Shown here: piece by piece, positions 2 through 20,695 of the stretch
Layout: every line of letters starts with the position of its first letter
Numbering within the stretch: position 1 is the first letter of the stretch
UHGV virus genome: UHGV-0008299
Length of the DNA: 20,928 bases
Direction: 5' to 3' (one strand)
DNA from: a virus
Made by a program: the position numbers and the translations under genes
Notes under the pieces: generated by a model
Told to the model about the DNA's origin: nothing
The model's input: the letters and a program-made list of their open reading frames with translations, nothing else
The model's database searches: none

Positions 2-157
2 GAAACCTCCAGCGCCTCCGGCATGGGCAATGATGCCACCGTCGAACTCTCTCCAGTTGCTGGACGAAACGTTCTCGATATCCGGGACGGAATTATCCGC
101 GACCAAACAGCACTGAGAACGCTTCAGGAATACATCAGGACGCAATGCCTTCGATGA
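2..157 (+). CDS. Rz-like i-spanin, C-terminal fragment (5' end outside window)
   Basis: Open frame from the window edge to TGA at 155-157. Translation ends ...LRTLQEYIRTQCLR, which resembles the C-terminus of lambda Rz as I recall it (...QKYINEQCR). Too short to appear in the ORF track. Confidence 0.55.
   Translation, partial: ETSSASGMGNDATVELSPVAGRNVLDIRDGIIRDQTALRTLQEYIRTQCLR
3..116 (+). CDS. Rz1-like o-spanin, C-terminal fragment embedded in +1 frame inside Rz
   Basis: Frame 3 translates KPPAPPAWAMMPPSNS..., a proline-rich motif resembling lambda Rz1 (PPPPPAWIMQPPP). Ends at TGA 114-116, inside the Rz frame, as expected for an embedded spanin pair. Confidence 0.5.
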   Translation, partial: KPPAPPAWAMMPPSNSLQLLDETFSISGTELSATKQH

Positions 158-14909: not shown

Positions 14910-15230
14910 TTAGCGGTTGATGGTTGCTTTTTTCGGGTCATACCATCTCGGCCATTCTTTCAGGAATGGGAATGAGTCGGGAGCGTGGTTCTTTTTGTAC
15001 GATTTAAGCAGCCTTAACCGCTCAATCGCACACTCATAAACCTCTTGTTGCCCTGTAGTCATCTCGGTCCATGAAAGGTGATCCATTGATAAGACAACGT
15101 TTTCAGCTTCTTTTATGAGGGCGTTTTTATTTCTCACCGCAGCAGCATGGCTGACAGAGCAATCCTGCCATATTCTTAAAAGCCAAATAGCTAAGCAGAT
15201 GAAAAAAATGGTAGAGAGCGATATGTACAT
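14910..15230 (-). CDS. Hypothetical small membrane-anchored protein (immI cargo)
   Basis: 106 aa with ATG start. Strong Shine-Dalgarno (AAGGAG, reverse complement of 15238-15243) about 7 nt upstream. N-terminal hydrophobic helix ISLSTIFFICLAIWLLRIW. AT-rich. Confidence 0.5.
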   Translation of the reverse strand: MYISLSTIFFICLAIWLLRIWQDCSVSHAAAVRNKNALIKEAENVVLSMDHLSWTEMTTGQQEVYECAIERLRLLKSYKKNHAPDSFPFLKEWPRWYDPKKATINR

Positions 15231-15310
15231 GCCGATCTCCTTAGATTTATCAATGCTGCATGATTTTCAACAGACATCAATCATGCAGCTATAGGTAATA
15301 AATCAAGAAA

Positions 15311-15820
15311 CTATTGAGAACGTTTGTCTTTTTGAGACTCTAATATAGCCAATACCTTATAAAGAGATTGGTTTGTTGAGTCTAATTTTTGATCAGTGTT
15401 ATCAATCCTTGACTGTAATACTGATTGGTTGTTTTGGATAGTAGCCATTATCTCTGCCTTACTGGTTTGGATGTTTCCTGTTAGCTCTTGTCGTGATGAT
15501 TCAACTTTATCATCTATAGTGCCTCGAATCGTCCATGTGGCGGCAACGATAGAACCAATGATAGCAACTGCAACCCCGTATAGCTCTAAACGTTTCACGG
15601 TATCACGACCTTCTTCTTTGTGTTGCTCTTCTTGTAGGCTAAATATTTGTGGTTCCTTTGACGGATTTCTGTCAGTTGGTCTGTAATACTCTGAATATTT
15701 AGCGTTTTCTATTGAACTCCATAACGATTTGTCAAAGTCAAGGTTTTCATGTTGGCTTTGAGCATCTCCATAAATACTAGGTGATTTATTGTGAACATGT
15801 TGGTCAAACATTATCTCCAT
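15311..15820 (-). CDS. Hypothetical single-pass membrane protein with coiled-coil C-terminus (immI cargo)
   Basis: The track ORF starts at GTG 15823; the first ATG is at 15820. One central hydrophobic helix (LYGVAVAIIGSIVAATWTI) followed by a Gln/Ser/Asp-rich heptad-like region. Overlaps the upstream zinc-ribbon ORF by about 17-20 nt. AT-rich. Confidence 0.55.
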   Translation of the reverse strand: MEIMFDQHVHNKSPSIYGDAQSQHENLDFDKSLWSSIENAKYSEYYRPTDRNPSKEPQIFSLQEEQHKEEGRDTVKRLELYGVAVAIIGSIVAATWTIRGTIDDKVESSRQELTGNIQTSKAEIMATIQNNQSVLQSRIDNTDQKLDSTNQSLYKVLAILESQKDKRSQ

Positions 15821-16151
15821 CACCCTTTACGAATTTTCCAGAAGAGATATTTTCACTAACTTTGTTTAAACTAAAAAAGTGGAAGAAACCGCAAGTGGTG
15901 CATTGCATGGCTACCATGTTAAGACTATCGTTGCTATAAGTATCTTGATTAACAGGATTATTAGGCAAGCTTTTACCTGGTATGGATGGGCCTATAACTT
16001 CAACACCATCATCTTTTTTAAGATGCTCAGGTGCTAAAAGAGTCCAGTTTGTATTGCTGCATATTGGGCATACATAAGTTTTTTTGAATGAAGTCAAGTA
16101 ATTACTAAAAGACTCAAAAGTAACTTTTAAGTATTGCTCCTTACTGCTCAT
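15804..16151 (-). CDS. Hypothetical zinc-ribbon protein (two CxxC pairs), immI cargo
   Basis: 115 aa with CPIC and CTTC motifs about 55 residues apart. Its ATG overlaps the mnt stop (TAATG on the minus strand). gagg Shine-Dalgarno 6 nt upstream. AT-rich. Confidence 0.55.
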   Translation of the reverse strand: MSSKEQYLKVTFESFSNYLTSFKKTYVCPICSNTNWTLLAPEHLKKDDGVEVIGPSIPGKSLPNNPVNQDTYSNDSLNMVAMQCTTCGFFHFFSLNKVSENISSGKFVKGDGDNV

Positions 16152-16390
16152 TATTGGCCTCGAATCTTCTTAAGTACGCTAATTGCAATATCCATTGCTT
16201 CCTTCTCTGTTTTTGTGAGATCTTGAGATGTCGATGGTATGACCTTTTCTCTGTTAATCTTAATCCATAGCTGTATTGCAGCTATGATTTCAGCATTGAT
16301 AGAGCGCCTGTTTGTTGCCGCAATGTGAGTAAGCTGCTGCTTGATTTCACTTGGCATTCTTACGTTAAATTGTGGATCGTTTCTAGCCAC
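16151..16390 (-). CDS. mnt: Mnt repressor (ribbon-helix-helix)
   Basis: N-terminus MARNDPQFNVRMPSEIKQQLTHIAATNRRSINAEI parallels P22 Mnt (MARDDPHFNFRMP...NGRSMNSEL). GTG start with GGAGAG Shine-Dalgarno 4 nt upstream. Divergent from arc. Confidence 0.85.
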   Translation of the reverse strand: MARNDPQFNVRMPSEIKQQLTHIAATNRRSINAEIIAAIQLWIKINREKVIPSTSQDLTKTEKEAMDIAISVLKKIRGQ

Positions 16391-16483
16391 GTCGCTCTCC
16401 TGTTATTTGTTGACATGCTAGAACGGTAGTAGTACGCTTTCAATAGTAGTACGGTGCTATCATTTAATGGAATGGAGTGGAAT
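16391..16483. promoter_or_regulatory. Divergent mnt/arc control region (Pant and Pmnt candidates with repeated operator-like elements)
   Basis: Plus strand: -35 TTGACA at 16410-16415 and a weak -10 TACGCT at 16433-16438. Minus strand: -35 TTGAAA (reverse complement of 16438-16443) and -10 TAGCAT (reverse complement of 16415-16420), 17-bp spacer. Direct repeat TAGTAGTACG at 16427-16436 and 16444-16453. Confidence 0.5.
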
Positions 16484-16645
16484 ATGCAAGGCGCAAGAAA
16501 AATGCCGCAGTTCAATTTGCGGTGGCCTAAAGAAGTATTGGATTTGGTACGCAAGGTGGCGGAAGAGAATGGTCGGTCTGTTAACTCTGAGATTTATCAG
16601 AGAGTAATGGACAGCTTTAAGAAGGAAGGGCGCATTGGCGCGTAA
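16484..16645 (+). CDS. arc: Arc repressor (ribbon-helix-helix)
   Basis: [53 protein letters not shown] is near-identical to P22 Arc as I recall it. The track ORF starts further upstream at 16454, but ATG 16484 with ggagtgg upstream gives the canonical Arc length. Confidence 0.88.
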
Positions 16646-16725
16646 AGTTGAAGCCCCAACTACGGGAACAGTCAGGGCTTCGGTTGTCGGTAAATTCGTG
16701 GAGAAAAACCAACATGAATAGTATA
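16646..16725 (-). ncRNA. sar: sar-like antisense RNA candidate (promoter plus transcript)
   Basis: Minus-strand -10 TATACT (reverse complement of 16720-16725) just inside ant. Transcription from about 16712 would run about 68 nt through the ant ribosome-binding site to a hairpin (GAAGCCC/GGGCTTC, 16650-16681) followed by CUUUA. P22 has a 68-69 nt sar RNA at this position. Confidence 0.4.
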
Positions 16726-17649
16726 GCAATTTTAGAAGCAGTGAACACCTCTTACGTGCCTTTCAATGGTCAGCAGATTTTAACCGCTGTGGCTGCCGGA
16801 GTGACTTATGTAGCGATGCGTCAAATTGTGGAAAACATTGGTATCGACTGGACTGGTCAATCTGTTAAGTTGCGTAAAATGAAGGACAAATTCAACTGTA
16901 GAGATATCTCTATGGTTGCTGCTGATGGCAAGTTACGTAAGCTTTTATGCATCCCGCTGAAGAAGTTAAATGGATGGCTGTTCAGCATCAACCCTGAGAA
17001 AGTTCGTGCTGACATCCGTGATAAACTGATTCAGTACCAGGAAGAATGCTTTAGCGTGCTGCATGACTACTGGACTAAAGGTCATGTAGTTAACCCACGC
17101 AAAGCTAAAAAGGCGTTGCCGGGTAAAATCACCACTGAACAGCAGGAAGCCATTAAACAACTCGTCATGAGTCGCGGTCAGTCTCTGCCAAAAGAAAAAC
17201 AGGCTAAGGCGATGATCACCATGTGGTCGTCACTGAAATCCCATTTTGGATGTTCGTACAAAGAAATCAGTGAGGAGCAGTTTACCGAAGCACTATCACT
17301 TGCAGCTCGAGTTCCACTTGAAGGTGAGTTCATTGGCAAACAAGAGAAGAAAACCAACGAGCTTTCTGCAAAAGAAGCAAACAGCCTTGTATGGTTATGG
17401 GATTATGCTAACCGCTCACAGGCATTATTCCGCGAACTGTATCCGGCATTAAAACAAATTCAATCGAACTATTCCGGCAGATGCTACGACTACGGTCATG
17501 AATTCTCGTATGTTATCGGAATGGCGAGAGACGTTTTAATCAATCACACACGCGATGTTGATATCAATGAGCCAGACGGACCAACGAATCTTTCCGCATG
17601 GATGAGACTTAAGAATAAAGAATTACCTCCTTCAGTACATAACTACTGA
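16714..17649 (+). CDS. ant: Antirepressor Ant
   Basis: The track ORF starts at TTG 16648; the first ATG is at 16714 ([21 protein letters not shown]...), with ggag at 16700-16703. Position after arc, about 310 aa, as for P22 Ant. Confidence 0.8.
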
Positions 17650-17749: not shown

Positions 17750-20695
17750 ATGACAGACATTACAGCCAATGTGATCGTATCGATGCCTTCGCAACTCTTC
17801 ACTATGGCGCGTTCTTTTAAAGCCGTAGCCAATGGTAAAATTTATATCGGTAAAATTGACACTGACCCGGTAAACCCTGAAAACCAGATTCAGGTTTATG
17901 TGGAGAACGAAGACGGCTCTCACGTTCCTGTTTCGCAACCAATCATCATTAACGCCGCTGGTTATCCTGTATATAACGGACAGATTGCCAAATTCGTAAC
18001 TGAGCAAGGCCATTCTATGGCTGTTTATGATGCGTATGGTGCACAGCAGTTCTATTTTCCTAATGTGCTGAAGTATGATCCTGATCAGCTACGGCAGCAA
18101 TTAGAAGACCCAGATGGAGCGGATAAATACCCAAAACTTCAGATAGCAAGATGGAGAGACAGTTATGATCTAAGAGGTTGGGGGGCTATTGGTGATGGTG
18201 TTCATGATGACACATCAGCTCTATCAGAATTACTTTCTGTTGCAACAGGTGGTGAAAAGATAGATGGGCGAGGGCTTACTTTTAAAGTGTCAACTCTTCC
18301 GGATGTCAGTCGATTTAAAAATGCTCGTTTTTTATTTGAGAGAATACCGGGTCAGCCTCTTTTTTATGCTTCTGAAGATTTTATCCAGGGAGAGTTGTTT
18401 AAAATTACAGATACACCGTGGTACAACGCCTGGACGCAGGATAAAACGTTTGTATATGACAATGTCATCTATGCGCCTTTTATGGCTGGAGACCGCCATG
18501 GTGTAAATAACCTCCATGTTGCATGGGTTCGCTCAGGAGATGACGGGAAGACCTGGACAACGCCGGAATGGCTTACAGATTTACATGAAAACTATCCCAC
18601 AGTTAACTATCACTGCATGAGTATGGGGGTTGTCAGAAATCGCCTTTTTGCTGTAATTGAGACGCGGACCGTGAGCGGAAATAAACTGCAGGTTGCAGAG
18701 TTGTGGGATCGCCCAATGAGTCGCAGCCTTCGCGTTTATGGTGGTATAACGAAAGCAGCAAATCAGCAAGTCGCTTATATTCGCATTACTGATCACGGAT
18801 TATTTGCTGGTGATTTTGTCAACTTCTCAAACTCTGGTGTTACAGGTGTTACCGGGAATATGACGGTGACTACTGTTATTGATAAAAATACTTTTACAGT
18901 TACGACGCAAAATACCCAGGATGTGGATCAGAATAACGAGGGTAGATACTGGAGTTTTGGTACATCATTTCACTCGTCACCATGGAGAAAAACCCGTCTT
19001 GGAACTATTCCTTCTTTTGTTGACGGAAGCACTCCTGTTACTGAGATTCACAGTTTTGCGACGATTAGCGATAACAGTTTTGCTGTTGGCTACCATAATG
19101 GTGATATTGGGCCACGCGAGCTTGGGATACTCTATTTCTCTGATGCTTTCGGTTCTCCTGGTAGCTTTGTTCGCAGACGCATACCTGCAGAATATGAGGC
19201 GAATGCATCTGAGCCATGTGTAAAATATTATGATGGCATTCTGTATCTGACGACCAGGGGAACATTAAGTACTCAACCCGGTAGTTCATTACACAGAAGC
19301 TCTGATTTAGGTGCATCATGGAATTCTCTTCGCTTCCCAAATAATGTTCATCACTCAAACCTTCCTTTTGCCAAAGTTGGCGATGAGCTGATTATTTTTG
19401 GCAGTGAGCGCGCATTTGGTGAGTGGGAAGGAGGAGAACCTGATAACCGTTATGCAGGAAATTATCCAAGAACATTTATGACCAGAGTTAACGTCAATGA
19501 GTGGAGTCTGGATAATGTAGAGTGGGTTAATGTTACTGATCAGATTTATCAGGGCGGAATAGTTAACTCTGCGGTTGGTGTTGGTTCAGTTTGTATCAAA
19601 GACAACTGGCTGTACTACATTTTCGGTGGGGAAGACTTTCTAAACCCATGGAGCATAGGGGATAACAACAGAAAATATCCTTATGTTCACGATGGTCACC
19701 CGGCTGATTTGTATTGTTTCAGGGTAAAAATTAAACAGGAAGAATTTGTTTCAAGGGATTTTGTCTACGGAGCCACTCCTAACAGAACGCTTCCTACTTT
19801 TATGTCGACGTCAGGCGTGAGGACGGTTCCTGTACCCGTTGATTTCACAGATGATGTTGCCGTCCAGTCACTGACTGTCCATGCCGGTACATCAGGACAA
19901 GTTCGCGCGGAAGTCAAACTTGAGGGTAATTACGCCATTATTGCGAAGAAAGTACCGTCTGATGATGTTACCGCTCAGAGATTAATCGTTAGCGGCGGTG
20001 AAACAACGTCTTCAGCAGATGGTGCAATGATAACGTTGCATGGTTCCGGAAGCAGTACTCCACGTCGCGCGGTATATAACGCACTCGAACATCTTTTTGA
20101 GAACGGAGATGTTAAACCTTATCTTGATAATGTAAATGCTCTTGGTGGTCCGGGAAACAGGTTCTCGACAGTTTATCTTGGCTCCAACCCTGTAGTTACC
20201 AGTGACGGAACATTAAAGACAGAGCCGGTCTCTCCTGATGAAGCATTGCTGGATGCCTGGGGTGACGTCAGGTATATCGCTTATAAATGGCTGAACGCTG
20301 TCGCTATAAAGGGGGAAGAAGGGGCGAGGATACATCATGGTGTAATCGCGCAGCAACTTCGTGATGTTCTTATTTCTCACGGACTCATGGAAGAAGAAAG
20401 CACAACATGCCGCTATGCCTTTCTTTGTTATGACGATTATCCCGCAGTATATGATGACGTCATTACTGGCCAAAGGGAAATGCCGCTGACTGATAATGAC
20501 GGGAGCATCATTGTTGATGAGGATGATAATCCAGTGATGGTAATGGAAGACATCATTGAGCGCGTTGAAATAACGCCAGCAGGATCTAGATGGGGGGTCA
20601 GACCTGATCTCTTATTCTATATCGAGGCAGCATGGCAGCGCAGAGAAATAGAAAGAATAAAAGCTAGGTTAGACTTAATAGAAGGGAAGCACTAA
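17750..20695 (+). CDS. Tailspike: P22-type head-binding domain fused to a sialidase-like (endosialidase-type) receptor domain and C-terminal intramolecular chaperone domain
   Basis: 981 aa. The first ~115 residues ([11 protein letters not shown]...VLKYDPDQ) parallel the P22 gp9 head-binding domain. Downstream there are two Asp-box motifs (SGDDGKTW at 18533-18556, SSDLGASW at 19298-19321) and a C-terminal region with an S-x4-K motif (SDGTLK, 20201-20218) and ...[20 protein letters not shown]..., resembling the self-cleaving chaperone domain of K1 endosialidases. Confidence 0.8.

Follow-up and report, generated by a model that had tools for sequence, protein, structure and literature searches.

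The window, that is, the whole stretch of 20,928 nt that was analysed, represents the late operon of an E. coli phage or prophage that is P22-like (Lederbergvirus) and mosaic: in its structural genes and tailspike it is similar to CUS-3 and phiv205-1, and in its immunity I (immI) region to N7. In the immI region, a P22-type layout was found, with a divergent mnt-like gene and an arc-ant operon flanked by the DNA-injection genes on one side and the tailspike gene on the other, and the gene order is that of N7, epsilon34 and P22 (Table 1). The ATG of ant is at 16714-16716, and the arc-ant spacer of 68 bp is entirely filled by an element that, judged by its sequence and position, is the orthologue of the sar antisense RNA of P22.

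Table 1. Positions of the immI features and of the tailspike gene in the window.
Feature	Position	Strand	Basis
mnt-like Arc-family repressor gene, divergent	16151..16390	-	Pfam Arc 5e-13
Pant-equivalent promoter (TTGACA, 17 nt, TACGCT)	16410..16438	+	predicted from alignment with annotated P22 Pant
arc (53 aa)	16484..16645	+	Pfam Arc 6e-31; 48/53 identical to P22 Arc
sar antisense RNA, 68 nt	16646..16713	-	Rfam RF00262 match, P22 misc_RNA mapping, P22 identity
sar stem-loop II, predicted G+C-rich terminator hairpin of 13-14 bp	16650..16681	-	Rfam, MFE fold, P22 terminator mapping
sar stem-loop I, 6-bp stem (GUUGGU/ACCGAC) with 16-nt loop	16686..16713	-	Rfam structure line, MFE fold, compensatory changes in relatives
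ant Shine-Dalgarno GGAG (+), anti-SD CUCC at sar nt 11-14 (-)	16700..16703	both	read from sequence
ant (antirepressor, 311 aa), sar target	16714..17649	+	Pfam P22_AR_N 2e-42, P22_AR_C 6e-30; annotated antirepressor in N7
Psar extended -10, TGCTATACT, in ant codons 3-5	16720..16728	-	identical in P22 and epsilon34, inside their annotated Psar
Psar -35 position, GTGTTC	16743..16748	-	placed from the 29-bp P22 promoter annotation 15097..15125
tailspike, 981 aa	17750..20695	+	P22 head-binding domain, K1-type endosialidase, C-terminal S74 chaperone domain

The endosialidase part of the tailspike consists of End_N_terminal, beta-propeller, beta-barrel and End_tail_spike, arranged as in CUS-3. Part of a 610-bp immI segment was matched in 356 of 5426 complete E. 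coli genomes, and at least 80% of the segment in 45 of them; no complete genome in this collection joins this immI type to this endosialidase tailspike. Similarity to the immI-matching genomes ends near 18090, at about the end of the tailspike head-binding domain. Between the injection genes and mnt, at 14910-16151, three minus-strand ORFs (106, 170 and 115 aa) are found where P22 has sieA and other moron genes (PMC2629481). None of the three gave a Pfam hit, and matches were obtained only to PHROG families of unknown function; the 115-aa product contains two CxxC pairs and the 170-aa product a hydrophobic segment.

Upstream of arc, the region departs from P22. Of the Arc and Mnt operators that P22 has at Pant/Pmnt, only the left Arc half-site (TAGAA) persists here, along with the -35 TTGACA; a tandem 17-nt repeat, GTAGTAGTACGCTTTCA / ATAGTAGTACGGTGCTA, at 16426-16442 and 16443-16459, takes the place of the right Arc half-site and of the palindromic Mnt operator. 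A generic promoter scan placed a Pmnt-like promoter at 16443..16415 (-). The Mnt-like protein shares 48% identity with P22 Mnt in its first 40 aa and is unrelated beyond; its DNA-reading strand, PQFNVRMP, resembles that of Arc (PQFNLRWP), the P22 Mnt strand being PHFNFRMP. This suggests that the Mnt-like repressor may recognise another operator than P22 Mnt does, which agrees with the operator having changed. The departure concerns the protein repressors and not sar. The Pant -10 is TACGCT here versus TATATT in P22 and thus weaker, so that the levels of the arc-ant target mRNA may differ from those in P22. For arc itself, the N7 GenBank record places the start 12 nt upstream (16472-16484; MEWNMQG...). 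A GGAG precedes the ATG at 16484 by 6 nt, and this start fits the P22 Arc N-terminus; the arc of the N7 record is probably too long by four codons.

When the window was compared with all 4227 Rfam families, a single match was obtained, to the covariance model RF00262 (sar RNA). It is full-length, covering model positions 1-68 of 68, runs from 16713 to 16646 on the minus strand and reaches 89.5 bits (E = 4e-18), the gathering score being 43 bits. The 5' end of the RNA is G16713, which lies 7 nt downstream of the -10 element and adjoins the ant start codon; the predicted 3' end is 16646 ± 2 nt, adjoining the arc stop codon, and the P22 RefSeq annotation would carry it to 16644. Consequently, the complementarity of the RNA extends over the entire ant leader, from the arc stop to the base that precedes the AUG. 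The first-pass annotation had proposed a sar-like antisense RNA over the ant ribosome-binding site, with a minus-strand transcript of about 68 nt crossing the ant Shine-Dalgarno sequence. Both proposals are supported, as the matched interval measures 68 nt and spans the GGAG at 16700-16703; with 93% identity to P22 sar, "sar-like" understated what is an orthologue.

Folding of the RNA revealed two hairpins with a minimum free energy of -27.7 kcal/mol (z = -4.3), and none of 200 shuffles folded as well. With G16713 counted as nt 1, stem I is formed by nt 1-6 and nt 23-28, and stem II by nt 33-45/46 and nt 51/52-64. The anti-SD CUCC lies in the loop of hairpin I and is the exact complement of the GGAG of ant. 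Hairpin II is followed by the tail CAACUUUAC (16649..16641), which runs into the arc stop codon and matches the P22 tail base for base. It is only weakly U-rich, with three consecutive U. Stem and tail are those of the annotated P22 terminator except for one G-C pair changed to G-U and one loop base. A hairpin with a U-rich tail had been predicted in the arc-ant spacer; the hairpin was confirmed at 16681..16650, and "U-rich" was a generous description of the tail.

Over the region from arc into ant, the window is 92% identical to P22, 94% to epsilon34 and 99.8% to the E. coli phages N7 and HZ41. The P22 RefSeq record NC_002371 annotates sar as a misc_RNA at 15021..15090 (-), its terminator at 15021..15058, a promoter at 15097..15125 and the ant start at 15091. 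Mapped to the window by way of the ant ATG at 16714, these become 16644..16713 for sar, 16644..16681 for the terminator and 16720..16748 for Psar. The same sar annotations are present in epsilon34 (misc_RNA, EU570103), where the promoter is annotated "by similarity with P22 Psar". The positions relative to arc, ant, Psar and the terminator agree with the annotations of both phages, as had been anticipated from the length and geometry of P22 sar.

Comparison of the RNA with P22 sar showed 63 of 68 nucleotides to be identical (93%). Among the five substitutions relative to P22, those at sar nt 16, 18 and 48 are located in loops, that at nt 25 turns the G4-U25 pair of stem I into G-C, and that at nt 52 turns G45-C52 at the top of stem II into G-U. 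No base pair is therefore lost, the changes being confined to loops or to exchanges between G-U and G-C. The change at nt 52 (16662, C to U) is all that separates the window from N7 over the 131 bp around sar; none of the other phage records examined showed it, and the IMG/VR search pattern described below is unable to detect it. Predicted length, arc-ant position, extended -10, start relative to the ant ATG, CUCC in loop I and tail are all shared with P22 sar, whereas P22 differs in its host (Salmonella instead of E. coli) and has a Pant/Pmnt operator region and an Mnt of another type. The epsilon34 sar shares the architecture and also the -35 GTGTTC, and differs from the window by three substitutions within the 68 nt.

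The predicted promoter Psar is of the extended -10 type, with TATACT at 16725..16720 (-) in ant codons 3-4 (AGT ATA) and a TG one base upstream. A four-way alignment with the reference phages showed no difference in the -10, in its TG extension, in the start region or in the post-hairpin tail, and the distance from Psar to ant is as in the P22 reference genome. The -35 GTGTTC matches the consensus at 2 of 6 positions; GTGTTA of P22 is one match better, and the element is poor in both. Extended -10 sigma-70 promoters need no good -35, and a poor -35 is usual for them. The generic sigma-70 promoter scan of 16100-17000 did not flag Psar, because its rule demands at least 4 of 6 matches in the -35, nor was the sar terminator flagged by the generic terminator rule in the same interval, where a tail of at least five T is required. 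Both omissions reflect the scan rules and are not evidence of absence. The first-pass annotation had pointed to a strong minus-strand -10 (TATACT) just inside ant. Its position was verified; "strong" was a generous word for it.

For an assessment of conservation, eleven phage loci, chosen to span the BLAST identity range, were scanned with RF00262. Ten of the eleven scored above threshold; SEN22 fell just below, at 32 bits. In addition, a set of 130 sar loci was assembled from an exact-pattern IMG/VR scan for hairpin II, the loci from phage records and the window. In all 130, the six nucleotides after TGnTAnnCT end in CAT, which is complementary to the ant ATG, and a purine start comes next. 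The -10 variant is TGCTATACT at 112 loci, TGCTAAGCT at 9, TGCTACACT at 8 and TGCTAAACT at 1. The -10 overlaps conserved Ser-Ile-Ala codons, and part of its conservation could reflect protein coding. The Psar arrangement is, however, kept even in loci with an unrelated ant coding sequence downstream of codon 5 (Kapi1 and S.Kent types), and thus promoter conservation is not simply conservation of the Ant protein.

For stem I, at least four sequence types were found (GUUGGU/ACYGAC, UCAAUA/UGUUGA, UCGUUA/UUACGA and UCGAUA/UUCGA), all of which pair. Per-sequence folds of the relatives gave two hairpins each, and loop I holds a CCU-containing anti-SD in all of them. Both hairpins were also recovered independently by RNAalifold from a plain MAFFT alignment, and in four of the pairs both partners had changed. 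As MAFFT partly misaligns stem I, reliance was placed on the cmscan alignments and the per-sequence folds, RNAalifold serving as a conservative check. Hairpin II is nearly invariant in the relatives, an invariance that is partly by construction, since loci were selected on the hairpin sequence. The Kapi1, EC.P3, S.Kent and Emek types all exceed the Rfam threshold and share hairpin II, the extended -10 with its spacing, the two-hairpin plan and the anti-SD in loop I. They differ in carrying other sequence types of stem-loop I and of the ant N-terminal module, with the stem kept by compensatory changes, and their upstream gene is not always arc.

A sar orthologue whose Psar no longer usefully fires could have been kept as a silent relic, only because its sequence doubles as the leader, ribosome-binding site and opening codons of ant. 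The -35 with 2 of 6 matches, one fewer than in P22, the failure of the generic scan to detect Psar and the placement of the -10 within coding sequence are what such a relic would look like. Nevertheless, we consider it very unlikely: the extended -10 (TGnTATACT) is identical to that of the experimentally characterised P22 promoter and does not require a good -35, and GTGTTC is shared with epsilon34, N7 and others and is present in the commonest IMG/VR variant. Moreover, the structure-preserving substitutions argue for continued selection on the RNA.

Still less probable, and hardly to be expected, is that the hairpins act on the sense strand only, in processing, stability or translational control of the arc-ant mRNA or as a recombination joint, with antisense transcription being incidental. 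The sense strand does form hairpins (-24.1 kcal/mol), and hairpin II is a mosaic joint between differing flanking modules. The sense fold is, however, less exceptional than the antisense fold (z = -2.1 versus -4.3), and the stem II G-U pairs U40-G57 and G41-U56 become A-C mismatches on the sense strand. A sense-strand role also leaves the extended -10 at its fixed distance unexplained, and the genetics of P22 sar mutants, in the account of Wu et al. 1987 as cited in PMC2629481, show that it is the antisense RNA that acts. Finally, a chance -10-like hexamer beside a chance hairpin would be conceivable from TGNTATACT alone, which is not rarer than chance (at least one copy in 34 of 100 shuffles of the window), yet it is excluded for all practical purposes by the Rfam E-value of 4e-18 and the 93% identity to P22 sar in the same gene context. 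The significance of the element accordingly derives from homology, position and conservation and not from the -10 hexamer.

For P22, the sar RNA is known to be made, with a length of 68-69 nt, and to repress ant translation (Liao et al. 1987, Wu et al. 1987 and Schaefer & McClure 1997, as cited in PMC2629481). It has been described elsewhere as a translational repressor of ant (PMC7968456) and as 69 nt long (PMC3134472), and the locus was detected by small-RNA sequencing of infected cells (PMC13397905). By analogy, we infer that sar would be expressed and would repress ant in the present phage, as in P22. Very probably, the element is the sar of a P22-like E. coli phage, a two-hairpin RNA made from Psar that limits Ant synthesis by blocking the ribosome-binding site.

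In the proposed mechanism, RNA polymerase would start at Psar (TGCTATACT) in the first ant codons, read about 68 nt leftward across the arc-ant spacer and stop at the G+C-rich hairpin beside the arc stop codon. The resulting two-hairpin RNA would be fully complementary to the leader of ant in the arc-ant mRNA transcribed from Pant, with the 16-nt loop of hairpin I displaying the anti-SD CUCC. Once paired with the leader, sar would mask the ribosome-binding site as far as the base preceding the AUG and so block Ant translation, so that antirepressor synthesis would be limited by sar alongside the protein repressors Arc and Mnt.

Among other short cis-antisense RNAs, IS10 RNA-OUT and lambda OOP also have their promoter inside or beside the target gene; in sequence and structure both are unrelated to sar. 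IS10 RNA-OUT occludes the ribosome-binding site, as sar does (see Ma & Simons 1990, cited in PMC7968456), whereas lambda OOP acts via RNase III-dependent decay and not by occlusion of the ribosome-binding site.

The sar described here is an already known RNA, belonging to a curated family and found in a context as in the type example, and the finding has little importance beyond annotation; it is a classic antisense regulator that can be recognised from sequence alone. In the N7 GenBank record and in the RefSeq E. coli prophage annotations examined, the sar ncRNA is missing and only Arc and Ant are given. Adding it would correct those records and also cautions against calling mechanical minus-strand ORFs over the spacer. 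Two such ORFs, 16617..16748 (-) (43 aa, GTG start) and 16460..16729 (-) (89 aa, TTG start), were rejected as genes, since both start codons are upstream of the sar 5' end at 16713.

A further observation concerns hairpin II (16650-16681). Across the 130 loci, it is a mosaic joint at which five modules, each made up of stem-loop I, Psar and the ant start, are combined with 17 arc-side sequences, and the latter include upstream genes other than arc. Selection of the loci on the hairpin explains part of its invariance and not the shuffling of its flanks. It is possible, if rather doubtful, that beyond terminating sar, hairpin II is also a preferred recombination joint of the "ant moron". If this were true, every exchange at hairpin II would transfer the matching ant ribosome-binding site along with the antisense promoter and the anti-SD loop, so that replacement of the upstream gene would leave the regulator matched to its target.
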